Source: Escherichia coli (GTDB taxonomy: Bacteria > Pseudomonadota > Gammaproteobacteria > Enterobacterales > Enterobacteriaceae). From it: a stretch of 64,000 bases of DNA. Below, in pieces: positions 30,342-45,194 of the stretch. The notes beneath the pieces are model-generated. The model was not told the DNA's origin and ran no database searches. It saw only the letters and a program-made list of their open reading frames with translations. The position numbers were made by a program, and so were the translations under genes. Within the stretch, counting starts at the first letter, position 1. Every line of letters begins with the position of its first letter. Location of the stretch: assembly GCF_045037415.1 (NCBI RefSeq), contig NZ_CP173438.1. One strand, 5' to 3'.

Positions 30342-30737
30342 TTATGAGTGGTCATTAAAGGCATCCTTAATCCACTCAACCTCATTCCCGGTGAAGGCTA
30401 CCACATCGAACCGGCAATCCACAGTATCAAAACTCCCATTATGACGCGCGAGCCACAAACGGGCAGTCTGTAATAATTTGTGTTGTTTGCTGCGGGTCAC
30501 ACTGGCTGCCGCGCCGCCATAAAGCGCAGAGCGGCGGTAACGCACCTCGATAAAAACGGTGGTCCGGCCTTCACGCATTATCAGATCGATCTCGCCGCCA
30601 CGCTCGTTCACGTTAGCGGCGATAAACCGTAGTCCTTTGCCTTCCAGCCAGCGACGCGCTTGTGCTTCCCACGCATCGCCGGTCTGTTTGGTGGTTAACT
30701 GGCGGGGACTACCTGACCTTGTTGGTACTGTAGCCAT
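30342..30737 (-). CDS. yraN: UPF0102 protein YraN
   Basis: 131 aa [57 protein letters not shown]... Confidence 0.9.
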
Positions 30738-32731
30738 GATAACTTCCTGTTAATCACGCAATCCGGGCTTGCCGTCAGGCTTCCGGTATTACCGTTGATT
30801 TCAAAACCCTGAACCTGGCGCATTTGTGAGAAATGATTTGCCAACGACCAGGCATCGACACCCATCGCATACATGCGAGCCAGCGAATAATCGTTGTTCA
30901 CCGCGCTGAGCGCCTGCTGCATTAACGGCAGATTACCGCCTGCCAGCATCGGGATTTCGCTGTACTGCAAGCCTTCCATCTCCAGGCGGAAATCCGGGCC
31001 AGCGGTCCCTTGCGCACTGCGGGAACTGGCGTACAGCGTTGCACCGCTCTGGCTACCGTTACGCATGGCGATCATCGGTTTGATAAAAGCGATTTCACCC
31101 GGCGTTGCCACAATGTACACCGCATCGACACGACCGCCATTATTGGTGAACTGGTCATCGGTTGGCGTGGTTTGCAGCGTTGGATTGTTGGTCGTCATGC
31201 CGGAGTCGGTTGTCGCTCTGGGAGTAATCGGGCTACCCGTTAAAGCAATACCAGAACCGCCGTTAACACCCGCGCGTAATTCGCTGGTGGAACCAAATTT
31301 TTGTTGCAGAACGGTGCCGCCACCCAGTTTCTGCCACTCTTGCGCAAACGCATTGGCTACGCGATCGCCCAATGAACTGCGCGGGATCAGCACCAGCGGC
31401 GCTTGTTTACCCTGGTCACGAATATGACGCGCTGCATCGCGCGCTTCGTCTTCTGGCGAAAGCGCGAAGTAACAAATATTGACGCGGTTTTCGATATTCT
31501 CCGGCTGGTTCAGTGCCAGCACGTTCAGCGGGGTGTTGCTCTTCAGCAACTCTTCAACGTTATTTTTCAGCAACGGACCGACCACAATACTCGCACCATC
31601 CTGCTGAACCTGGCTTAAGATCTGGCTAAGTGGTTGTGATGAGGTATCGTAGATTTTCAGCTCTGCGGATGGATTTGCGGGTGCGTTTACCGCTGCGGTG
31701 CTTGTCGCCGGGGCGCTTACAGGTACCGGCTGGGCCGCAGGCTGTTCACCGGTCAGATCGCTAACCGAAGCTTGTGCCGGGCTGGCAACGCCATCCACGG
31801 TTTGCGGCTGAGGTTGTTCTGCTACGTCTGCGGCAGGTGCGGCAGCTACCTGGGCCGCCACTGGCTGAGTGCCGATATTTTTCGCCGCTTCAAAGCCTTG
31901 CTGAATAGTGCGACCAAATACCGCTGCCTGGCCATTCAGCGGCAACAGCAGGGCGATTTTGTTGGTCGATGCTGGTTTAAACGCTTTTACGTTAACCAAC
32001 TGCGTTGGCAGCATTTTCGCGCCCGGGTTGTTCGGATAACGTTTCTGCCAGTCGGCGATCCCAGCTTTCATCATGTCAGGATCGTTACGGTTATCAAACC
32101 AGACGCGCTGCAAATCCAGCCAGCCTTGCAGAATATTTTCGTCGGCGTTGATCACCAGCGTATTCGCCTGCTCCTGAGTCATGGAGGAGAGCGCCTGCCA
32201 TGTGGCGTCAATATTCTGCTGCTTTTCTTTCGCACCGAGCAGCGGTTCCTGAGCAATTAACGCGCGCAGTAAATCAATGGAAGGACGCCCCTGGCTGGCA
32301 TCGATTTTTGCCTGCCAGTAACGGGCTTGCTGGTTTTGTTCTAAATCGGCAGGTGTGATTTTCGCCAGCAAGTTTTGCGCGCCAGCAAAATCTTTCTGCG
32401 CCAGTTTAATCTCTGCCGCCAGCAGTGTTTTCTCGCGACGCTGATTATCATTCAGTTCTTGCGGTAGTTGGTTAACCAACTCAACCGCCTGCCCGGTTTT
32501 ACCTTCTTTCACCAGTGCACGAATGGCGAGTAATTGCCAGTTGATCCTGGTATCATCAGAACTTTGCTGCATCTGTTGCAGGTAAAAAGCAGAATCAGCC
32601 TGCGCCGTGCCCTGCATATAAGCAGTGGACTGATCGGGAGTATGGGTGCCACAACCGGCGAAAATCAGGGCTGCCAAAACAACAGGCAGACAACGCGCGG
32701 CTTTCAAACGAGAAAATGTTGAGGGTACCAT
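30695..32731 (-). CDS. lpoA: penicillin-binding protein 1A activator lipoprotein LpoA
   Basis: ORF 30695..32761; ATG at 32731 gives 678 aa [28 protein letters not shown]... with lipobox FAGC; 3' end overlaps yraN start by 43 nt. Confidence 0.9.
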
Positions 32732-32795: not shown

Positions 32796-33659
32796 ATGAA
32801 ACAACACCAATCGGCGGATAATTCTCAGGGGCAGCTTTACATTGTACCGACGCCAATCGGCAATCTGGCGGATATCACCCAGCGTGCATTAGAGGTATTA
32901 CAGGCCGTTGATCTGATTGCCGCCGAGGATACGCGTCACACCGGTTTATTGCTGCAACATTTTGGGATTAATGCCCGGTTGTTTGCGCTGCACGATCATA
33001 ACGAACAACAAAAAGCCGAAACGCTGCTGGCGAAGCTGCAAGAGGGGCAAAACATTGCGCTGGTTTCCGATGCCGGAACGCCGCTAATTAACGATCCTGG
33101 CTACCATCTGGTGCGTACCTGTCGTGAAGCGGGGATTCGCGTGGTGCCGCTACCAGGGCCGTGTGCTGCTATCACTGCGTTAAGCGCCGCGGGTTTACCA
33201 TCCGATCGTTTTTGTTATGAAGGCTTTTTACCTGCCAAATCAAAAGGCCGCCGTGATGCGCTAAAAGCTATTGAAGCGGAGCCGCGCACGCTGATTTTTT
33301 ATGAATCTACCCACCGTCTGTTAGATAGCCTGGAAGATATTGTTGCGGTATTAGGCGAATCCCGTTACGTGGTTCTGGCGCGTGAGCTAACCAAAACCTG
33401 GGAAACCATTCACGGCGCGCCCGTTGGCGAGCTGCTGGCGTGGGTAAAAGAAGATGAAAACCGTCGCAAAGGCGAAATGGTGCTGATTGTCGAAGGCCAT
33501 AAAGCGCAGGAAGATGACCTGCCTGCTGATGCCCTGCGCACGCTGGCGCTGTTACAGGCAGAACTGCCGCTGAAAAAAGCGGCGGCGCTGGCCGCAGAAA
33601 TTCACGGCGTGAAGAAAAATGCGCTGTATAAGTATGCGCTGGAGCAGCAGGGAGAGTGA
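32796..33659 (+). CDS. rsmI: 16S rRNA (cytidine1402-2'-O)-methyltransferase RsmI
   Basis: 287 aa [52 protein letters not shown]... Confidence 0.93.
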
Positions 33660-33662
33660 TTA

Positions 33663-33698
33663 CAGGCGTCGCAGCAGGAATAGCGCTGCAACGCCTGT
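33663..33698. terminator. near-perfect 13-bp inverted repeat hairpin between convergent rsmI and agaI (putative bidirectional terminator)
   Basis: CAGGCGTCGCAGC-aggaatagc-GCTGCAACGCCTG, 12 of 13 pairs; no strong T-run. Confidence 0.4.
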
Positions 33699-33708
33699 AC
33701 CAGGCGAG

Positions 33709-34476
33709 TTAACGACGACACATTTCATCAATCACGCATGTGAAATGGTTATGCAGCCATAAAAATGAAGCCGGGATAGCGGTGGAGACTTTAGCCGTGA
33801 GAAAACGTTCTGTCGCATCCTGTTTTCCTTCGCCAGTTATCAGTAACAAAACTTCGCGGGCATTGAGAATATCCTTCAGGCCTAAGGTGATCCCACGAGT
33901 CACGGGACGGTCAGCGGTTTTTAACATCTCATGTTGCTGTGTTCTGGCATCAAGTTGACTGATATGGCAGGCCGGTTGCAGGCTTTCTCCCGGTTCGTTC
34001 AGCCCAAGATGACCGTTTTTCCCCAATCCGAGAACGCATAAGTCCAGACCGCCTTTGCGCGCAATCAGGTTCGTTACCCGTTCGCACTCTGTCTCATTTA
34101 TCTCTTCGGAGTGAAAGCTGATGAGCTGGTCTTCACGTAGCCCCAGCGGCTGCACGATATGCTGTTGAAGGAAAGTTTCGCAGGTACCAGGCATCGTTAA
34201 TGGCAGATCCACCCATTCGTCGAGCTTCACGAAGGTGAGCTGGCTGACATCAACCTGCTGCTGGTGGATTTTTTCTACCAAATAATGATACGTCAGTAAT
34301 GGCGTGGCTCCGGTCGCCAGGCAAATCACGGCATCCGGTTTGCTACGGATCACGGCCAATAAATATTCGCTGGCACGTTCACTTAACGCCGTATAGTTTT
34401 CAACTTGTTGAAGGGTTTGCACAGGATGAAATTCCTTAAGTAAAGAGGCACCGCCAGACGCGGTGCCTCGTTCCAT
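33709..34476 (-). CDS. agaI: putative galactosamine-6-phosphate deaminase/isomerase AgaI (NagB family)
   Basis: 255 aa ORF MERGTASGGASLLKEFHPVQTLQQVENYTALSERASEYLLAVIRSKPDAVICLATGATPL... Confidence 0.88.
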   Translation of the reverse strand: MERGTASGGASLLKEFHPVQTLQQVENYTALSERASEYLLAVIRSKPDAVICLATGATPLLTYHYLVEKIHQQQVDVSQLTFVKLDEWVDLPLTMPGTCETFLQQHIVQPLGLREDQLISFHSEEINETECERVTNLIARKGGLDLCVLGLGKNGHLGLNEPGESLQPACHISQLDARTQQHEMLKTADRPVTRGITLGLKDILNAREVLLLITGEGKQDATERFLTAKVSTAIPASFLWLHNHFTCVIDEMCRR

Positions 34477-35268
34477 TTACAAAATGCCGAATGCAGAACA
34501 AACAATAGAAAGAACAAACGTCACGCCGATTAACAGCACCGGATGCGCTTTTTTCACCCGCAGGAAGTAATACATCAGCAGGGTGTAGGCCATCGGTAAA
34601 ATATTCGGGAAGACTTTATCGAAGAAATCCTGCTGCAGCGCGACGCTGTGGGTACTGTCGATGGCAAACGATGTCACCACGTTAATATGCACATACGAAG
34701 CGATCAGCCCGCCGATTACTGTGATCCCGAGGATGGTTGCCGAACGGGCAATCATCTGCGAGTTCTCTCGCACTTTATCAATAGCCTTCACGCCGACTGA
34801 ATAACCGACGTGGGTCCAGCCGACGCGCAGGAAAAAGATAAGCAGGTAAACGGCGAAAAACAAAATCGGTCCCAACAGGTTCCCCTGACTGGCAAACGAT
34901 GAGCAAATCCCCGCCATAATCGGCAACAAAGTAAACCAGAAAATCGCATCGCCAATCCCGGCGATTGGGCCAAACAGTGCCACTTTGAGGCCTTTAATGG
35001 TGTCGCGGTTTTCTCCTTTTTCTTCCATCGAAATTAATAACCCCATCAGAAATCCGACCAGATTAGGGTGGGTATTAATAAATTCGAGGTTATCTTTCAT
35101 CGCCGCGCTTAGGCCCGGTTTGTCGTTCTTATAAATCTTTTTCAGGATCGGCAACATCGCCCAGGTAAAACCGCCCGCCTGCATCCTTTCGTAGTTAAAG
35201 CTTGCTTGTAGCAGTGACGAACGAAAGCCCAGACGGGTGATATCTTTTTTACTGATTTCAGATCCCAT
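34477..35268 (-). CDS. agaD: PTS mannose-family IID component (galactosamine-specific)
   Basis: ORF 34477..35415; ATG at 35268 gives 263 aa MGSEISKKDITRLGFRSSLLQASFNYERMQAGGF... Confidence 0.9.
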   Translation of the reverse strand: MGSEISKKDITRLGFRSSLLQASFNYERMQAGGFTWAMLPILKKIYKNDKPGLSAAMKDNLEFINTHPNLVGFLMGLLISMEEKGENRDTIKGLKVALFGPIAGIGDAIFWFTLLPIMAGICSSFASQGNLLGPILFFAVYLLIFFLRVGWTHVGYSVGVKAIDKVRENSQMIARSATILGITVIGGLIASYVHINVVTSFAIDSTHSVALQQDFFDKVFPNILPMAYTLLMYYFLRVKKAHPVLLIGVTFVLSIVCSAFGIL

Positions 35269-36061
35269 TGCTGTAGTCCTCTTCTTCATTTTTACTGGCA
35301 ACGGGCTGCGGTTGCGCTTGCTGCCGGGATTTCGCATTGAAAAACTCATACACCGCAAAGCCTGCGCCCAGCACGGCAACCGGCAACAGGTTGCTGACCT
35401 GGATGTAGCAAACAAACAGGAAACCGGCGATCAGGTAAGGGATATATTGCGCTTTGAACATCACGCGCAGCAGCAAGCCAAAACCAACGGCAGGCAGAAT
35501 ACCGCCAGCCACTTCAAAGCCGTGGGTCAGCCAGGCGGGCATCGCTTTCACCAGCGCCTGCATCGCCCCTTGTGCCAGGTAAGTACAGAGGAAAGCAATC
35601 ACCGCATACGCTGAAGCGACGATGAGCATCGTTGTCCAGTTAAGTCGGGAAAACGCTGCCGTATCCGCCTCTTTCGCGCATTTATCGGCTTTGGTCATAA
35701 ATAATGAGAAAGCGGAATAGAAGAACAGAATGACGTACTGCATTAACAAACTAAACGGCAGGCCAAGACCAATTGCCGTTTTGGCATCAACGCCCGTAGA
35801 CCATGCAATGACGGTGGTCATCAGACCCGCCATAATAGGGTTGGGCGGCTGAACACCACCTGCAGGGGTTAATCCGGCGAAAGCCAACTCTGTCAGGCCT
35901 CCGGTAATTAAGCCAGTCTGAATATCACCGAGAATAGCACCTGTAAGGGTACAAACGATTATCGGGCGGAATAAAAATAAGGCTTCCAGCCAAAAATCAA
36001 TCCCCAGAACGAAAACTAACGCCGCCAGGGATAATCCCTGGAGTAGGGTTATTTCATGCAT
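35258..36061 (-). CDS. agaC: PTS mannose-family IIC component (galactosamine-specific)
   Basis: 267 aa hydrophobic ORF MHEITLLQGLSLAALVFVLGIDFWLEALF...; overlaps agaD start by 11 nt. Confidence 0.9.
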   Translation of the reverse strand: MHEITLLQGLSLAALVFVLGIDFWLEALFLFRPIIVCTLTGAILGDIQTGLITGGLTELAFAGLTPAGGVQPPNPIMAGLMTTVIAWSTGVDAKTAIGLGLPFSLLMQYVILFFYSAFSLFMTKADKCAKEADTAAFSRLNWTTMLIVASAYAVIAFLCTYLAQGAMQALVKAMPAWLTHGFEVAGGILPAVGFGLLLRVMFKAQYIPYLIAGFLFVCYIQVSNLLPVAVLGAGFAVYEFFNAKSRQQAQPQPVASKNEEEDYSNGI

Positions 36062-36099
36062 TTTTATTACCTCAAACCAATATTAAGGCGATTTCAGAT

Positions 36100-36576
36100 T
36101 TAGTCAGGGATTTGTTCTTTTTGATCGCCAGGAACGTCCTGAATGAAAACATTCACGCCACGTTGTTTAATATAACGTAAGTCCGTGAGATCCTGGTCAT
36201 CGACATAAACTTTACTGCTGATTTGCTTTTTCCCTTCCGAGAAATGCATATTGCCGACGTTGACATCTTTCAGGTCAATACCACCTTCTACCAATTTACG
36301 TACCGTTTGTGGCGTACGGCAAATCAGGAAGATCTTCTGATGTGGTGCAGCTTTGCCGATGACGTTAATGGTTTTTTCGATAGTAAAGAAACGAATGCCA
36401 AAGCCGTAGGTTTCTGCGGTAATACCCATTAATTTCTGTTGAATATCATCGTTAGCGACAACATCATCCACGACTACCAACAGATTCGCACCGATGGTGG
36501 ATGTCCAGGTCACGCCAACCTGACCGTGAACCAGACGGTTATCAATACGGGTTAAGAGAATATTTGGACTGCTCAT
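36100..36576 (-). CDS. agaB: PTS mannose-family IIB component (galactosamine-specific)
   Basis: 158 aa ORF MSSPNILLTRIDNRLVHGQVGVTWTSTIGANLLVVVDD... Confidence 0.9.
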   Translation of the reverse strand: MSSPNILLTRIDNRLVHGQVGVTWTSTIGANLLVVVDDVVANDDIQQKLMGITAETYGFGIRFFTIEKTINVIGKAAPHQKIFLICRTPQTVRKLVEGGIDLKDVNVGNMHFSEGKKQISSKVYVDDQDLTDLRYIKQRGVNVFIQDVPGDQKEQIPD

Positions 36577-36742
36577 TGTGTAATCCTCACCATAAAGTTG
36601 AATAATATAATATTTTTAAATATATTATTGTTGCGATATTGTACTGATGTATTTATTAATGTTTGGTTATCTCCTTTGCCATTAAGGTACTACCCGATAT
36701 TAATCGGGCAGTGCATTCTGAAAAAACGTATAAAATTAATGA

Positions 36743-37615
<873 letters not shown>

Positions 37616-38770
37616 TTATGCCTGCCACGGATGAATAGTTACGCCTTGCACCACGCGGTTTACGGTGCCACTGGCTGATGGGGTATCCGGCGTATTGCCC
37701 ATGTGCAGCGACTGCATCAGTGCAAACGTCTGGGCGTACATCAGGAAGCAAAATGCTTGTTCAACGTCGATAAAGTGACGGGACGGCGGCAGGATGATAT
37801 GCGGGCCAGCGGCGATAACGTCGTTGCTTTCAGCGGTGATGGCGATCACGCGCATTGCCTGGTTGTCACGGCGGAGTTCTGCCAGCAGGTCAAGATCGTA
37901 CTGACGGGTGTAAGGGTGACTGGAGACAAACACCACTACCAGCGTTTCGTCATCGACCAGCGATTTCGGGCCATGACGGAATCCGGTCGGGGAATCATAG
38001 AAGGCCGCCAGTTTACCCGCTGTCAGTTCCAGCACTTTCAGCGCCGACTCGCGTGCTGCGCCCTGTAAGCCACCGCTGCCGAGATAAACGATCCGTTTCC
38101 ACGGTGCGTAACCAAACACACCTTCGCTGAAATCGCCCAGTGAGGTCAGGATCGCCTGGCAACGATCCGCCACGTCGCGGAAGGTTTGGCTGTTGATCGT
38201 CTCAGGTGCGAAAACCGCGAGGCAGCTGGCCATCATGGTGGTAATGCTGCTGGTCATCGCAAAGCCGCGATCGTGCGTTTCTGCGGGCATCAGCAGGGCA
38301 AACGCGTTGTCGCTGTTGATCGCGTTTTGGTAAAGAGCGCCCGCTTCGTTGCAGGTGATCGGCAGGTGATAGCATTCTGGTACAAATTGATTTGCCAGTT
38401 CCACGGCGGCGACGCTTTCCGGGCTGTTGCCGGAGCGACCGAAGGAGATCAACAGTAGCGGATGAGCTGGGTTCAGGTAGTCCATTGGATTGGTGACCAG
38501 ATCGGTGGTTGGTACGGCGCTGAAGTTTTTACCGGTATGGCTGGCGAGCCACGGCGCGATGATGTCACCGATAAATGCCGATGTTCCGGCTCCGGTCAGG
38601 ATGATTTGCAGATTCTCTTTGCGCAGTAACGGTTCAAGGAAGTTATTGAGCGCGGAACGTAGCGCGTCAATGTTGGTGAGTGAACGGATCCATGCGCGAG
38701 GCTGATGGCGGATCTCTTCTTCAGTCCATGTACCGGTTGCGGCAGCAGCAGGGGTGTAATTTTCTGGCAT
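37616..38770 (-). CDS. agaS: SIS-domain sugar-phosphate isomerase/deaminase AgaS
   Basis: 384 aa ORF MPENYTPAAAATGTWTEEEIRHQPRAWIRSLTNIDALRSALNNFLEPLL... Confidence 0.92.
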   Translation of the reverse strand: MPENYTPAAAATGTWTEEEIRHQPRAWIRSLTNIDALRSALNNFLEPLLRKENLQIILTGAGTSAFIGDIIAPWLASHTGKNFSAVPTTDLVTNPMDYLNPAHPLLLISFGRSGNSPESVAAVELANQFVPECYHLPITCNEAGALYQNAINSDNAFALLMPAETHDRGFAMTSSITTMMASCLAVFAPETINSQTFRDVADRCQAILTSLGDFSEGVFGYAPWKRIVYLGSGGLQGAARESALKVLELTAGKLAAFYDSPTGFRHGPKSLVDDETLVVVFVSSHPYTRQYDLDLLAELRRDNQAMRVIAITAESNDVIAAGPHIILPPSRHFIDVEQAFCFLMYAQTFALMQSLHMGNTPDTPSASGTVNRVVQGVTIHPWQA

Positions 38771-38774
38771 AACT

Positions 38775-38945
38775 CAATCCTTAGTCTGATGAACTTGACG
38801 TCGGCGTTGTCGCTTTCGCTTGCCTTTCGTTTCATTTCACTTGGTGATTTCTTTCGTTGGTTAAAATCTATAGAAAAGAAACTGAAAGTTCAATGGAGAA
38901 AAAGGAAATAAAACGAAATCTGTGATCGTTGAAAGAAAAGACAAG
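38775..38945 (-). promoter_or_regulatory. agaS promoter region with CTTTC/GAAAG-rich direct repeats (candidate AgaR operators)
   Basis: GCCTTTCGTTTCATTTCACTT... and repeated GAAA(G) units seen in sequence; AgaR operators are known to be built on such repeats. Confidence 0.45.
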
Positions 38946-38962
38946 GGAAGTAAAAGGGATTG

Positions 38963-39043
38963 CTGGATGCGGCGTAAATACTTTATCCGGCCTTACGGTC
39001 ACCAACCGTAGGTCGGATAAGGCGCATTAGCGTCGCATCCGAC
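38963..39043. repeat. REP/BIME pair between agaA and agaS
   Basis: CTGGATGCGGCGTAAATACTTTATCCGGCC and GTAGGTCGGATAAGGCGCATTAGCGTCGCATCCGAC. Confidence 0.7.
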
Positions 39044-39060
39044 ACCGCTGCACAGATCAA

Positions 39061-39106
39061 AAAGAAAGAAAAAGAAAGGCCTTACGGGGGAAGTGAAGGC
39101 CTAATA
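39061..39106 (-). terminator. Rho-independent terminator after agaA (end of agaZVWEFA transcription unit)
   Basis: minus-strand reading AGGCCTTCACTTCCCCCGTAAGGCCT followed by TTTCTTTTTCTTTC. Confidence 0.55.
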
Positions 39107-39119
39107 AAGGAGCAAACCA

Positions 39120-40253
39120 TCAAAACGAAGCTAATTGACCCTGAATCCAGATTTGTTGCACATGCAGCCCGCTATCCAGCGCAACGACGCTGGCGCGTTT
39201 GCCCGGTTTAAGCGATCCCAGAACACCATCAACACCCAGCATTCGCGCCGGATGCAGCGACGCCATATGGATGGCTTCCGCAGGCGTTACGCCCGTCAAC
39301 TCGACCATGTTGCGCACTGCCGCATCGACAGACAGCGTACTGCCCGCCAGCCCACCGAACGCGGTACGGACAATGCCACCGTGCATCTGCACTTCTTCAC
39401 CACATAACGTATAGTGACCATCCGGCATCCCGGCTGCCTGCATCGCGTCGGTGATCAGTACGATCCTCTCTTTCGCACAGCAACAACAGAGCGACATTGC
39501 CGCCGGATGTACATGATGACCATCGGCTATCAGTTCCAGCCAGGCGCGCTTGTCCGTTAATCCCGCGCCAACCATTCCCGGTTCGCGGTGATGTAAACCT
39601 GTCATCCCGTTATAGCAATGCACCAGGCCGTCGGCACCAGCATCAAACGCGGCACGGGTTTGTTGCCAGGTCGCCGCGCTATGCCCCAGCATCACCCGTA
39701 CGTTTTGCTGTTTAAGATGGCGGATGGCCTGCAATGCCCCTTCTTTTTCTGGTGCCAGCGCTACCACGCGTAAGGTCTGCTGAGAAACGGCAATCAATTG
39801 ATCCAGCTCGGCAATTTCCAGCTCGCGAAACAGCTCCGGCGGATGTGCGCCTTTATTCTGCGGCGTGAAGTACGGTCCTTCGAGATAACTCCCCAGCACT
39901 TGCGCACCAGGCCCACCGCGCTGGCAGCGTAGAGCAATACGTTTCAGCGCCGCATGAATGGTATTAAGCGGCGCGGTTACGGTGGTCGGTAACCAACTGC
40001 CGACACCTTCGCGTGCCTTGTGCATTGCCAGCTTGTCGAGCGCATCCGGCGCGTCATCCATTACATCAACGCCCGCACCACCGTGTACATGGGTGTCGAT
40101 GTAAGCGGGGCAGAGCAGTTCCGCATCGCGTTCAGTCACGCCCACTGGAATCGGTTCGATTGCTGCGATTACACCGTCAGCAATACGCAACTGATGGTCA
40201 TCGAGCCATCCCTCTTCAGTCAGCAGCCTTCTGGCGCGCAGAACGTGTGTCAT
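39120..40253 (-). CDS. agaA: N-acetylgalactosamine-6-phosphate deacetylase AgaA, full length
   Basis: ORF 39120..40274; ATG at 40253 (ATGA overlap with agaF stop) gives 377 aa MTHVLRARRLLTEEGWLDDHQLRIADGVIAAIEPI...; amidohydrolase HxH motif; alternative start at 40274. Confidence 0.88.
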   Translation of the reverse strand: MTHVLRARRLLTEEGWLDDHQLRIADGVIAAIEPIPVGVTERDAELLCPAYIDTHVHGGAGVDVMDDAPDALDKLAMHKAREGVGSWLPTTVTAPLNTIHAALKRIALRCQRGGPGAQVLGSYLEGPYFTPQNKGAHPPELFRELEIAELDQLIAVSQQTLRVVALAPEKEGALQAIRHLKQQNVRVMLGHSAATWQQTRAAFDAGADGLVHCYNGMTGLHHREPGMVGAGLTDKRAWLELIADGHHVHPAAMSLCCCCAKERIVLITDAMQAAGMPDGHYTLCGEEVQMHGGIVRTAFGGLAGSTLSVDAAVRNMVELTGVTPAEAIHMASLHPARMLGVDGVLGSLKPGKRASVVALDSGLHVQQIWIQGQLASF

Positions 40254-40684
40254 ATTCCTTCCTCGACCGGACATTCCTCATGGCAGCGACCAAGTTCGTC
40301 CACCAGACTGGTTAGCCCACGGTGTCCACACTCCAGCGCCTGCACACGGAACTCTTCACCGCTTAACCCTTCGCGTTCCAGCACCATTTCCAGTAATAGT
40401 TGCAAATTTGTGCCGGTGATCACTTCACAGCCCGGTTTTTGCATCGCCAGCGTTGAAGCTACGCGAAACGGCGTGCCGCCCAGCAAATCCGTCAGAAAAA
40501 CAATGCCGTCTTCACAATCCAGTTGGGCGATGGCCTCTTCAAGCTGCGATGTAAGCAGCGCGGTGCTTGAGGTTTCTGGAAAATCGATGGCGATAAACTG
40601 CGATTGCTCGCCGAGGATTTGCTTCATTGCTTTTTCCATGCCGCTGGCAAATCCGCCATGCCCTGTCAAAATAATACTTAACAT
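40250..40684 (-). CDS. agaF: PTS mannose-family IIA component (N-acetylgalactosamine/galactosamine)
   Basis: 144 aa ORF MLSIILTGHGGFASGMEKAMKQILGEQSQFIAIDFPE... Confidence 0.88.
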   Translation of the reverse strand: MLSIILTGHGGFASGMEKAMKQILGEQSQFIAIDFPETSSTALLTSQLEEAIAQLDCEDGIVFLTDLLGGTPFRVASTLAMQKPGCEVITGTNLQLLLEMVLEREGLSGEEFRVQALECGHRGLTSLVDELGRCHEECPVEEGI

Positions 40685-40701
40685 CTAATACCTCATTGTA
40701 T

Positions 40702-41586
40702 TTAAAGGAAATGGCAGAATTTACCGACGATGCCGAGAACCACTGTCACTGCAATCAGGCGCAGCGGACTCCAGCCGCGGCGTACCAGCCAGAACATGGT
40801 CAGGGTGTAGACCAGCGGTAAGAAGGCAGGCATCAGTTTGTCGATAACATCAGCCTGTAACTTAACCACTGCGTCGCCCGCCGTGATTTCCAGCGTGGTG
40901 CTTAAACGAACATAGGTTGCCACCAGCGCGCCGATCACCGTCATCCCAACGATAGACGCCGCATGGCCGACTTTTTTGGTATTTGCTTTAATGAGTGGAA
41001 TAGCCGCCACGCCCATGCGGTAAGCATAATGCGCCAGACCAAAACGCAGCCCCAGGTGCACCACGTTGAACAGCACAATAAAGACGACAGCGCCAAGAAT
41101 AGAGCCTTGTAGCGCGAGGCTTGCGCCTATCCCGCCACAAATCGGCAGTAGCGTTAGCCAGAACATCGCATCGCCAATCCCGCCGAGCGGCGCACCGACG
41201 GCAATTTTGGTGCTCTGAATACTGTTAACGTCCTGCTTAGAACGCTCCATCGCAAGGATAATGCCGATAACAAACGTCACCAGAAACGGATGGGTATTGA
41301 AGAAACCCATATGCCCCTTCATGGCGCGCGCCAGGTCCCGTTTATTAGTGTGGATCTTTTTCAGAGCAGGCAGCAGACCGTACAACCAGCCGGAAGCCTG
41401 CATACGTTCGTAGTTGAAAGACGCTTGTAACAGCATGGAGCGCCAGGCGACGCGGTTGATATCTTTTTTCGTCAGCTCTGCGCCAATGCTCTGATCTTCA
41501 TACACGTTTTCATTGACGCCAGTCAGCAGTGTTTCTTCATTTTCGCTGACGTTCGGCAGGGTGGTTTGATTAGATGCCATCTTCAA
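40702..41586 (-). CDS. agaE: PTS mannose-family IID component (N-acetylgalactosamine-specific)
   Basis: 294 aa ORF MKMASNQTTLPNVSENEETLLTGVNENVYEDQSIGAELTKKDINRVAWRSMLLQASFNYERMQ... Confidence 0.88.
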   Translation of the reverse strand: MKMASNQTTLPNVSENEETLLTGVNENVYEDQSIGAELTKKDINRVAWRSMLLQASFNYERMQASGWLYGLLPALKKIHTNKRDLARAMKGHMGFFNTHPFLVTFVIGIILAMERSKQDVNSIQSTKIAVGAPLGGIGDAMFWLTLLPICGGIGASLALQGSILGAVVFIVLFNVVHLGLRFGLAHYAYRMGVAAIPLIKANTKKVGHAASIVGMTVIGALVATYVRLSTTLEITAGDAVVKLQADVIDKLMPAFLPLVYTLTMFWLVRRGWSPLRLIAVTVVLGIVGKFCHFL

Positions 41587-42349
41587 ATTCCTCTTTCTGT
41601 GCCGCAGGTTGAGTCGGTTCAGGAGATTTACGCAGCAGGTCGATCAGCGCCATCGCCAGCGCAGCGGCAGCAATAGCCAGCACCGGTAACTTGAGCCAGG
41701 CTGCGGCAACAAAGCCCAGGATGAAGTAGGGGATGTAGACGTTTTTCATCATGATTTTCAGCAGCACGGCAAAACCGATTGCTGGCATGATGCCGCCCGC
41801 GACGCCGAGGCCATCAATTAATCGTTGCGGCAGGACATCAATGATGGTTTTTGCATGTTCCGCGCCGAAGTAGATAGGCAGGAAAGCGCAGAGAAAATAG
41901 AAAGTGCCGAGTGCCAGCAGTGCCAGATAGTTCACGCGTTCAATGCCGCGAGTATCGGCGTTCTCCGCCATCCGGTCGCAGCGGGACATCACGCCGGACA
42001 TCACCGAGAACAGGAAGGTAATCCCCATCTGTACTGCAACAGCGAAAGGTACGGCGACACCGACCGCGACATCGGGTTTCACGCCAGTAGTAATGGCAAA
42101 CGCCGTGCCGACGATAGTACCGATAATCACGTTAGGCGGCTGTGCGCCCGCCAGCGGGGCCAGCCCCATCCACACCAGTTCCAGCGTACCGCCGGTTAAA
42201 ATACCGGTATGCAGATCGCCAAGTACCAGCCCGACCAACGGGCCGAGAACCACCGGGCGGTGCATATGGGTTAAGCCGTTAAACATATCCAGGCCAGCGA
42301 TAAAGGCGATAATGCCCAACGCAAATGCCTGCAACAGACTGATTTCCAT
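41570..42349 (-). CDS. agaW: PTS mannose-family IIC component (N-acetylgalactosamine-specific), full length
   Basis: 259 aa hydrophobic ORF MEISLLQAFALGIIAFIAGLDMFNGLTHMHRPVVLGPL...; overlaps agaE start by 17 nt. Confidence 0.88.
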   Translation of the reverse strand: MEISLLQAFALGIIAFIAGLDMFNGLTHMHRPVVLGPLVGLVLGDLHTGILTGGTLELVWMGLAPLAGAQPPNVIIGTIVGTAFAITTGVKPDVAVGVAVPFAVAVQMGITFLFSVMSGVMSRCDRMAENADTRGIERVNYLALLALGTFYFLCAFLPIYFGAEHAKTIIDVLPQRLIDGLGVAGGIMPAIGFAVLLKIMMKNVYIPYFILGFVAAAWLKLPVLAIAAAALAMALIDLLRKSPEPTQPAAQKEEFEDGI

Positions 42350-42359
42350 GATGAATCCC

Positions 42360-42833
42360 TCAAAGTAATTTAAAGAGGTCCACAGCAGGCTCTGTCGGGA
42401 CGCCCTGAACGAAGCATTCCACCCCAGCGGCTTTCAGGTCGTTAAATGCTGCGATATCACCCGCATCCACAGAAACCGTTTTGGCGATTTGTTGCTTGCC
42501 ATTGGCGTAGTGCATATTGCCAACGTTAATGCGATTCACCGGAACGCCACCTTTCACCAGCGTCAGGAAATCGGCCGGTGTTTTACAAACCAGCAGGATT
42601 TTCTGTCGATCGGCGGCGCGATGGATGTTGTCGATGACTTTTTGCAGCGTCCAGAAACGTACGGCGATCCCTTCTGCCAGTACCATTTCCATCAGGTTTT
42701 GTTGTACCGGATCTTCGGCAACCTCATCGTTGGCTACCAGCACCAGATTTGCCCCCGCAAATCCTACCCACTGAACGCCGACCTGACCGTGAATCAAGCG
42801 TTCATCAATCCGACTTAAAACAATATTTGGCAT
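42360..42833 (-). CDS. agaV: PTS mannose-family IIB component (N-acetylgalactosamine-specific)
   Basis: ORF 42360..42869; ATG at 42833 gives 157 aa MPNIVLSRIDERLIHGQVGVQWVGFAGANLVLVANDE... Confidence 0.9.
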   Translation of the reverse strand: MPNIVLSRIDERLIHGQVGVQWVGFAGANLVLVANDEVAEDPVQQNLMEMVLAEGIAVRFWTLQKVIDNIHRAADRQKILLVCKTPADFLTLVKGGVPVNRINVGNMHYANGKQQIAKTVSVDAGDIAAFNDLKAAGVECFVQGVPTEPAVDLFKLL

Positions 42834-42855
42834 AGCGTGTTCCTCTTTGTTTTGC

Positions 42856-44136
42856 TTATTGGCCTTCACAGGCTGTGTGGTACTGCGCCAGGATGTCCTG
42901 AATATGGTTGATAATGAGTTCCCGTGGCGTTGGCTGCAGCTCGCCGGAGCGAACTTTCACGTACTGCAGCGGCAGATACTGACTGATCAGCGGCAGCGGA
43001 ATTGGTGAATCCGCCAGATTACGAACCAGATGAGCGAAAGCGTCATCAATCTGGCTGTCCGGCCAGTAATAGCGCACGCGATCCGAGTAGCTATAACCAC
43101 GCGCCAGACGACGCGCGTTGCCGTCACCGTGGTAGTGGCTTTGCCAGTATTCCGGGCGGTCGAGCATCACGTTTTCCAGCACCTGACGCAGACCAGAACA
43201 GGCTTTTGCTGGCACTAGTTCTTCTTCAATCGCTGCCAGAGAGAACAGAGCTTCACGCAGAGCAAAGGTCAGCGCCGGGCCAACTTTCAGAATGGCAAAG
43301 TGGTCAATCACCAGCTGGCGCAGCGATTGCGGCGTTTGATAATCGGTAGAGTGCGCTTCGAAAATCAGCGTTTCGTAGTTTTCGACCATCTGGCTTAAGG
43401 CGGTCGCTTTGGCGGGCTGATAATCAATAACGTTGGTGTGATCGAATTCGACGCCGGGTTGAACCACCAGGGCAATGATGCGTGGCCAGATGGCATTCAG
43501 ACCCTGCTTTTCAAAAGCGTGACGATGGGCTTCCAGCGTGGCGCGGGCGGCATCCGGCGTGGTGACCGCCAGCTCGCTTAAGGTTTCATGCGCGCCGCCA
43601 GGCACCGGCACTTCGGTACCAATGACATACTCCAGATCGGCTTCGCCAAAATGTTCACGGCAGGTTTCTTCCGCCACTTTCGCCAAACGAGCGGCGCGTT
43701 CGGCCACGATGCCATCGGTTAAGGGAATCGGATCGTCCTGACAGGACATGCTGCAATCAAGGTGAATTTTTTTGAATCCTGCCGCCACGTAGCTTTTAAT
43801 CAAATCATCGGCATTGGCCATTGCCTGAGCGGCAGGCAGATTTTGCCAGCGGTTTGGCCCCAGATGGTCGCCACCCAGAATCAGCGCATCCTGCGGGAAA
43901 TTCAACGAGTCGGCGAGCTGACAAACAAAGCCGCGAAAACCGGCGGGCGTCATTCCGGTATAACCGCCAAACTGGTCCACCTGATTGGAGGTAGCTTCAA
44001 TCAGTAACGGCGTTTGGTTTGCACTGGCGTAGCGGATTGCAGCTTCCAGCACCAGCGGATGTGCGGAACAAACGGCATAAATCCCATTTGTTTTGCCCGC
44101 TTTGTGCTGTCTCACCATTTCTGTCAGATGTTTCAC
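42856..44136 (-). CDS. kbaZ: tagatose-bisphosphate aldolase non-catalytic subunit KbaZ (AgaZ)
   Basis: 426 aa [64 protein letters not shown]... Confidence 0.92.
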
Positions 44137-44384
44137 TTTCCTCTCCAGTTCAGATTACTGCGACATTAATCTTTCGTTTTGTTTCAGTTGATACTGCGTC
44201 ATGGTGAGATAAAAATAAAACGAAAGATAATAGTTTTCTGATCTGATTCACAAAAGAAACATAATGAAAGCCACTGAAACGAGAGTAGCTTGCGCCAATG
44301 GGTAAGGTGGGCTTGCATTTGCTTAATAGAAAGGCGTTAATAGGCAAAACGAAATGAAACGAAAGTTTTACGAAAGGACTTACT
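44137..44384. promoter_or_regulatory. divergent kbaZ / agaR control region with repeated (A)AACGAAA(G/T) units (candidate AgaR operators)
   Basis: AAACGAAAGATAATAG..., AACGAAATGAAACGAAAGTTTTACGAAAGG seen between divergent start codons. Confidence 0.45.
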
Positions 44385-45194
44385 ATGAGTAATACCGACG
44401 CTTCAGGTGAGAAGCGAGTGACAGGCACCAGCGAGCGACGAGAACAGATCATTCAGCGTCTGCGACAGCAAGGGAGTGTGCAGGTTAACGATCTGTCGGC
44501 ATTGTATGGCGTATCTACTGTGACGATCCGCAACGATCTGGCGTTTCTGGAAAAGCAGGGGATCGCCGTGCGTGCCTATGGTGGCGCGTTGATCTGCGAT
44601 AGCACAACGCCGTCAGTCGAGCCATCAGTGGAAGATAAAAGCGCACTGAACACCGCGATGAAACGCAGCGTTGCGAAAGCTGCCGTTGAGTTGATTCAGC
44701 CTGGTCATCGGGTGATCCTCGACTCCGGGACCACCACTTTTGAGATTGCTCGTCTGATGCGCAAGCACACCGACGTAATTGCGATGACCAACGGTATGAA
44801 CGTGGCTAATGCGTTGCTGGAAGCGGAAGGCGTTGAGCTGCTGATGACCGGGGGGCATTTGCGCCGTCAGTCGCAATCTTTTTACGGTGATCAGGCTGAG
44901 CAATCGCTGCAAAATTACCACTTCGATATGCTGTTTCTTGGTGTAGATGCGATCGATCTGGAGCGTGGCGTCAGCACGCATAATGAAGATGAAGCCCGTT
45001 TAAACCGTCGGATGTGCGAAGTTGCGGAACGGATCATCGTGGTCACCGATTCCAGTAAGTTCAACCGTTCCAGTTTACATAAGATCATTGATACTCAACG
45101 TATCGACATGATCATTGTTGATGAAGGCATTCCTGCGGATAGTCTGGAAGGACTGCGAAAGGCTGGGGTTGAAGTGATTCTGGTCGGGGAATGA
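44385..45194 (+). CDS. agaR: DeoR-family transcriptional repressor of the aga regulon
   Basis: 269 aa [62 protein letters not shown]...; N-terminal HTH. Confidence 0.93.

Follow-up and report, generated by a model that had tools for sequence, protein, structure and literature searches.

The locus raises the question of why, in one strain of Escherichia coli, the convergent genes rsmI and agaI should lie only 49 bp apart when in strain K-12 a fimbrial operon stands between them, and whether the close arrangement precedes the fimbrial one or is derived from it. The original prediction, made from the sequence of the window (the whole stretch of 64,000 nucleotides that was analysed), held that the yraHIJK operon expected from the K-12 map was missing, that the junction was a clean empty site, and that the operon had been inserted in K-12-like strains rather than deleted here.

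The yraHIJK genes encode gamma-1 chaperone-usher fimbriae, with a fixed position beside agaI in strains K-12, B, W and Crooks (PMC3032704). Yra determinants are significantly associated with non-B2 lineages (PMC11565901) and are present in all phylogroups except B2, being rarer in D (PMC8767327); for clade-specific chaperone-usher operons, Wurpel et al. (2013) described a single acquisition at one locus, followed by inheritance or loss (PMC3559732). With respect to this clade-specific distribution of Yra, the window is a straightforward case of a yra-negative strain, and the published absence of Yra from B2 means that the absence of yra from a B2-type genome was already known. The papers cited here deal with gene presence and absence; what is added is the anatomy of the junction, where 99 bp stand against 5,484 bp, both genes end differently and the spacer contains a hairpin, together with the further haplotypes. 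A limited literature search on the rsmI/agaI junction returned presence/absence reports and unrelated matches only, and no description of the junction among them.

The following features of the window were identified:

32796 to 33659, plus strand: rsmI, encoding the 16S rRNA (cytidine1402-2'-O)-methyltransferase; open reading frame of 287 amino acids, matching NCBIfam PRK14994 over its full length with 629.5 bits (cut-off 502)
33709 to 34476, minus strand: agaI, galactosamine-6-phosphate isomerase; open reading frame of 255 amino acids, matching NCBIfam PRK09762 with 472 bits (cut-off 271)
33660 to 33708, no strand: spacer of 49 bp from the stop codon of rsmI to that of agaI, the two genes being convergent
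33653 to 33751, no strand: haplotype-specific segment of 99 bp, delimited by ungapped comparison with K-12 from both sides
33661 to 33675 and 33685 to 33699, no strand: arms of a stem-loop with a 9-nt loop and a stem that reaches 15 bp through TA/TA pairs
30695 to 32731, minus strand: lpoA, the left flanking core gene, identified by tblastn and by its annotation in strain AVS0543, where this stretch is identical
34477 to 35268, minus strand: agaD, the right flanking gene, identified by NCBIfam and from the annotation of the identical AVS0543 stretch

The open reading frames of rsmI and agaI agree with the predicted convergent arrangement and 49-bp spacing. By NCBIfam, lpoA, yraN and diaA lie to one side of the pair and agaD, agaC, agaB and kbaY to the other, and lpoA is syntenic in all haplotypes examined. 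Positions 12796-47813 of the window are identical to strain AVS0543, and the 100% matches to the 99-bp segment include O25b:H4-ST131 strains; the E. coli of the window is ST131-like, of phylogroup B2-type.

Several further features of the two genes and their surroundings were noted. According to the annotation of the identical AVS0543 stretch, the window has a complete aga/gam cluster (33709-45194) of 13 genes, from agaI to agaR (44385-45194), which includes agaW, agaE, agaF and a full-length agaA (annotated as nagA); the K-12 cluster is without agaE and agaF, and its agaW and agaA genes are truncated. A perfect 10-bp palindrome, GAGGCACCGC cagac GCGGTGCCTC, is found at 34445-34469, at about codons 3-11 of the annotated agaI and just past the agaD stop codon. 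The match to the NCBIfam AgaI model begins only at residue 17, so the true agaI start may be further downstream; the palindrome may be intercistronic. In E. coli FXCREC145 (NZ_CM135823.1, 2717425-2720177), a copy of ISApl1 (IS30 family) splits agaI into two annotated pieces, the rsmI-agaI region being otherwise 100% identical. The terminator scan flagged a terminator-like G+C stem followed by TTTTTT on the minus strand at 33579-33595, antisense within the 3' part of rsmI, and found it in K-12 as well (locus L001, 9784-9800); it could halt read-through from agaI or yra into rsmI, or could be a chance match in coding sequence.

The comparison with K-12 was made with its derivative RR1 (locus L001), in which the order lpoA, rsmI, yraK, yraJ, yraI, yraH, agaI, agaD bears out the map from which the missing operon had been predicted. 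Its absence here was confirmed by tblastn with the four K-12 proteins (usher YraJ, chaperone YraI, subunits YraH and YraK), none of which has a match in the 64-kb window at E<=1e-10. When the ungapped alignment is walked inward from each side, homology with K-12 stops at 33652 on the rsmI side and restarts at 33752 on the agaI side, and the indel boundaries are thereby set at 33653-33751 in the window (99 bp) versus 9858-15341 in L001 (5,484 bp). The 99 bp take in 7 nt from the end of rsmI and 43 nt from the end of agaI, with the whole 49-bp spacer between them; sequence that strictly lacks homology is confined to the interval from one stop codon to the other, which measures 49 bp in the window and 5,449 bp in K-12.

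The description of the junction as a clean empty site does not survive this comparison. In K-12, 99 bp are swapped for 5,484 bp, the ends of both genes are altered, and there is no flanking direct repeat or target-site duplication at the borders of the island. The hairpin of the window is neither split nor duplicated at the K-12 site, no arm of it being found at L001 9858 or 15341. K-12 has its own hairpin behind rsmI, of unrelated sequence and with the tail CTTCTTTT, which the scan called terminator-like; the window hairpin loosely resembles the terminators behind rsmI in K-12 and E. whittamii, but the shared GCGTTGC / GCAACGC is too short to count as homology. The island consists of the four yra genes only, with an AT-rich regulatory region upstream of yraH. 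It has 45% G+C, compared with 53.6% in the left flank, and the 430-bp stretch from yraH to the point where homology restarts (L001 14911-15341) has 27%; such a composition is typical of horizontally acquired fimbrial DNA. The recombinase, tRNA or att site and flanking repeats by which a mobile island is recognised are all missing from the K-12 island. Yra itself is a cryptic adhesin of K-12 without a defined receptor.

The direction of change was examined in outgroups, for which GTDB species representatives were scanned with the AgaI peptide. Only six loci were obtained, none of which bore the name E. fergusonii, E. marmotae or E. ruysiae. The state of each is as follows:

Escherichia albertii (L005): 49-bp spacer with a hairpin identical to that of the window
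Escherichia sp. E1V33 (L003): perfect 13-bp stem
divergent strain E69 (L004): hairpin with a compensated change of a G-C to an A-T pair
Trabulsiella odontotermitis (L008): agaI adjoins rsmI, with a different spacer containing REP-like palindromes
Escherichia whittamii (L006): yraHIJK, with the same junctions as K-12
Escherichia sp. MOD1-EC7003 (L007): chaperone-usher operon of the same gene order, with 53-65% protein identity

A spacer of 49 bp is found in E. albertii, E1V33 and E69 and in four other E. coli alleles. E. albertii is 89-92% identical to the window in lpoA, rsmI and agaI and 96% in agaD. On the basis of one E. albertii, one Trabulsiella and two divergent Escherichia, outgroup taxa appear to be unoccupied, with an orthologous junction. 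The Trabulsiella spacer (L008 8705-8810) has REP-like GCCGGATAAGGCG ... GCCTAC palindromes and no Escherichia hairpin; the spacer of the convergent genes is palindromic in both genera, and the elements are not the same.

These loci bear on the possibility that yraHIJK was simply deleted from a K-12-like arrangement and that the 49-bp spacer is the scar. Fimbrial operons of E. coli are often lost or disrupted, and some yra copies proved to be truncated or interrupted by IS elements (H64, H72, H74-H79), as would suit such a history; however, nothing in the K-12 allele corresponds to the 99-bp segment, which could not have arisen from that allele by deletion, the segment is orthologous to the E. 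albertii spacer with its identical hairpin, and the AgaI tail that it encodes is common to E. albertii, E1V33 and E69. Simple deletion is therefore refuted in practice and is scarcely credible. Because the 99 bp cannot be created by deletion from a K-12-like allele and have an orthologue in E. albertii, the unoccupied allele is of ancestral type. The predicted direction, insertion and not deletion, was thus supported by the spacer and hairpin of E. albertii, E1V33 and E69 and by the adjacency of agaI and rsmI in Trabulsiella, but the attribution of the insertion to K-12-like strains has to be given up, since the event is much older: yraHIJK is found in E. whittamii and in about 65% of complete E. 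coli genomes. The E. whittamii Yra proteins are 83-90% identical to those of K-12, and the nucleotide identity of the yra genes (80.5-85.3%) compares with 89-93.6% (about 89-94%) in the flanks. Its location in E. whittamii at the same junctions indicates that the yra haplotype is old and not specific to K-12.

The distribution of alleles was then counted in 5,426 complete E. coli genomes. At least five haplotypes were found at what had been treated as a site of two states:

yraHIJK: 3,523 genomes (3,264 with at least 80% of the island)
hairpin spacer, unoccupied: about 1,830 genomes (a continuous rsmI-agaI junction in 1,835)
MBL/LysR: 64 genomes; 2.4 kb, encoding an MBL-fold metallo-hydrolase and a LysR regulator
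toxin-antitoxin: 13 genomes; 851 bp, encoding a RelE/ParE-family toxin and an HTH antitoxin
alternative chaperone-usher operon: 2 genomes (from an ivory gull and a dog); gene order as in yraHIJK

In the 3,523 genomes that have it, the yra island is always chromosomal, with a median of one place per genome. The 99-bp segment is present in 1,861 of the 5,426 genomes, once in each, and spacer alleles differ from that of the window by up to about 9%. As the haplotype counts sum to approximately 5,426, unoccupied genomes would not carry yra elsewhere in any number, and from the same arithmetic we infer that yra is absent from the rest of the window's own genome.

The minor haplotypes have boundaries of their own. 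The toxin-antitoxin cassette (L013 3151-4001, E. coli 23CRST031, NZ_AP045800.1) has taken the place of the 49-bp spacer precisely, from the rsmI stop codon to that of agaI, and so has the MBL/LysR cassette (L014 4702-7122, E. coli VE-T9; L015 7001-12131, O145 strain RM9872); the two share a border of 66 bp by rsmI and one of 122 bp by agaI. The MBL/LysR cassette of O145 strains adjoins a further swap, of agaBCDI for malX-like and malY-like (MalY/PatB-like) genes. The alternative chaperone-usher operon (L016 2447-7461, E. coli 18KM2445; compare L007 9137-14149 in Escherichia sp. MOD1-EC7003) has 64-70% nucleotide identity to yra and 80% to the operon of MOD1-EC7003, and 53-65% protein identity to yra; the fimbrial operons at this site, at least two, differ by 30-35% of their nucleotides. 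No integrase, transposase or tRNA/att target accompanies the yra, toxin-antitoxin, MBL/LysR or alternative chaperone-usher cargo.

The rsmI-agaI interval behaves as a hotspot for accessory genes between convergent genes. Integration hotspots without a link to tRNA genes are familiar in E. coli (e.g. Touchon et al. 2009, as cited in PMC3559732), with varied modules between core genes, no integrase or att site, and exchange by recombination in the flanks. The rsmI-agaI interval resembles these in having different accessory modules in different strains and no integrase or att sites, and differs from them in that its boundaries extend a few codons into both flanking genes.

The extent of that intrusion is seen in the encoded proteins. 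RsmI ends in EQQGE in the window versus EQQG, one residue shorter, in K-12, and AgaI ends in WLHNHFTCVIDEMCRR in the window (255 amino acids) versus WLHSNFICLINT in K-12 (251 amino acids). The AgaI tails (to the stop codon, or continuing where dots are shown) are:

window, E1V33 and E69: NHFTCVIDEMCRR
E. albertii: NHFTCLTDEMCRR
toxin-antitoxin haplotype: NHFTCMIDEICRH
MBL haplotype: NHFTCMFDEICRH
K-12: SNFICLINT
E. whittamii: RNFICLIDRNKA
E. coli with the alternative chaperone-usher operon: SNFICLIERSKA
MOD1-EC7003: NNFTCLFDKL...
Trabulsiella: PDVTCLYDG...

A motif WLH-x-x-(F/V)-(T/I)-C-(V/L/M) is common to all AgaI tails examined, in Trabulsiella in part. The idea that the K-12 tail is foreign DNA was rejected on account of this motif, the presence of which in every tail indicates that the K-12 tail is diverged agaI sequence. 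The hairpin, toxin-antitoxin and MBL haplotypes have an rsmI end of ...GGGAGAGTGA and AgaI tails of the NHFTC(V/M)IDE type; the chaperone-usher haplotypes have an rsmI end of ...GGGGTAA, AgaI tails of the SNFICLI type and AT-rich codons in the agaI tail. The site has two allele lineages, one with the hairpin and one with chaperone-usher operons.

E. whittamii and MOD1-EC7003 have chaperone-usher operons at this site, and either polymorphism or occupation may therefore have been the state of the common ancestor of E. coli; B2 could then have regained the unoccupied allele by recombination. The corresponding alternative, that the B2 ancestor had yraHIJK and later lost it by recombination in rsmI/lpoA and agaI/agaD with a donor of the unoccupied allele, draws on the same two operons, which make the occupied state at least as old as E. 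coli. It draws also on the mosaic nature of the flanks, where the identity of blocks of 107 bp or 90 bp to the window versus K-12 switches from block to block among strains, a pattern that implies frequent recombination at the rsmI-agaI region, and on E1V33, in which agaI and the spacer are close to those of E. coli (96-99%) beside a more divergent 5' part of rsmI (90-92%), so that rsmI-agaI alleles evidently cross the borders of lineages. The window, however, bears no mark of recent import, and both the lack of Yra from B2 as a whole (PMC11565901, PMC8767327) and the divergence of spacer alleles by up to that same 9% fit long residence better than a recent swap. Replacement in B2 is consequently considered unlikely, and long residence of the unoccupied allele is preferred.

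The spacer of that allele is almost wholly hairpin, beginning 1 nt past the rsmI stop codon and 9 nt past that of agaI. The near-perfect 13-bp inverted repeat of the original prediction was confirmed as arms CAGGCGTCGCAGC (33663-33675) and GCTGCAACGCCTG (33685-33697), complementary at 12 of 13 positions; the single mismatch is C.A on the plus strand and a G.U wobble in RNA from the minus strand. The predicted fold energy is -25.0 kcal/mol on the plus strand (z -3.2) and -29.7 kcal/mol on the minus strand (z -4.6), and the inverted-repeat pattern, found once in the window, did not occur in any of 100 shuffles. When eight alleles were aligned, 92.5% of pair cells were paired and 10 of the 15 pairs were invariant; some E. 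coli alleles have two stem mismatches. The one compensatory change, G-C to A-U in E69, was equalled or exceeded in 233 of 500 shuffles and is therefore uninformative.

Like intrinsic or bidirectional terminators between convergent genes, the element is a stable G+C-rich stem-loop right behind both stop codons; unlike them, it has no U-tract 3' of the stem on either strand (the tails being CCAGGCGAGUUAACG on the plus strand and AUCACUCUCCCUGC on the minus strand), for which reason it was not called as a canonical terminator in the consensus scan of the window. In this it also differs from the rsmI terminator of K-12, which has another sequence and possesses a U-tract. A search of Rfam with the hairpin gave no family at E<=1. 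REP elements are common in spacers between convergent genes, where they stabilise upstream mRNA. The hairpin is like REP/BIME elements in being an imperfect palindrome in such a spacer, but by eye has no resemblance to the REP consensus, and membership of a REP-like repeat family was rejected because the sequence is single-copy, the window having a single site even when 3 mismatches are allowed and all 1,861 matching genomes one place each. Between ST131 and E. albertii, hairpin identity is 100% though the flanks differ by 8-11%, and a stable stem-loop lies directly behind rsmI in every other haplotype as well; both facts suggest that the hairpin has a function. Most likely, the hairpin would act as a shared 3'-end structure of the rsmI and agaI transcripts, in termination and/or in protection from 3'-exonucleases.

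Its replacement in each haplotype might instead mean that the hairpin is an att-like or hairpin-recognised recombination target through which cargos integrate. The occurrence of at least four unrelated cargos at one position accords with this, as do the toxin-antitoxin and MBL/LysR cassettes, which replace precisely the 49 bp between the stop codons and have common 66-bp and 122-bp borders; but no integrase, transposase, tRNA or direct repeat was found with any cargo, no half-hairpin is left at any junction, a sequence that is single-copy per genome gives no repeated family of targets, and spacers of convergent genes generally permit insertions because nothing essential is broken. We regard a target of this kind as very improbable.

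A more speculative proposal, which is rather doubtful but is prompted by the 100% identity of the hairpin between ST131 and E. albertii in spite of their divergent flanks, is that the rsmI-agaI interval may be a long-lived trans-species cassette position. Ancient hairpin and chaperone-usher lineages would then have been co-maintained across Escherichia by selection (e.g. for or against a surface adhesin), the hairpin type later also taking up a toxin-antitoxin or an MBL/LysR pair and the chaperone-usher type at least two fimbrial operons, and the conserved hairpin, which has no U-tract, would work as a 3'-end element in both directions.

The explanation that we favour, with a probability of roughly 80%, is that the window has an unoccupied, ancestral-type, never-filled allele of a multi-allelic accessory hotspot. 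In the unoccupied allele, the hairpin spacer would serve as the common 3'-end structure of both transcripts. In the yra allele of K-12 and its many counterparts in E. coli, the spacer would have been swapped for a gamma-1 chaperone-usher operon of 5.4 kb together with the AT-rich stretch upstream of it, with diverged last codons of agaI and rsmI and a canonical terminator behind rsmI of its own. This acquisition would have taken place long before K-12, at least around the divergence of E. coli and E. whittamii, and would have left no mobile-element signature. Thereafter, homologous recombination in the conserved flanks would have transferred occupied and unoccupied alleles as entire haplotypes, and the B2/ST131-type lineage of the window would hold the allele that was never occupied.

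The anatomy of the junction, the evidence of polarity and the extra haplotypes are incremental detail, the biology is ordinary, and there is little significance beyond bookkeeping. What is added to the known distribution of Yra is that the unoccupied allele is ancestral; that the occupied allele is old, evolves separately and changes the last residues of RsmI and AgaI; and that at least three cargos besides yra have taken the place of the 49-bp spacer. The ends of rsmI and agaI are markers of haplotype and are thus useful to pangenome and adhesin-typing tools, and the site illustrates, neatly and on a small scale, a hotspot that lies between convergent genes and bears no mobile-element signature.
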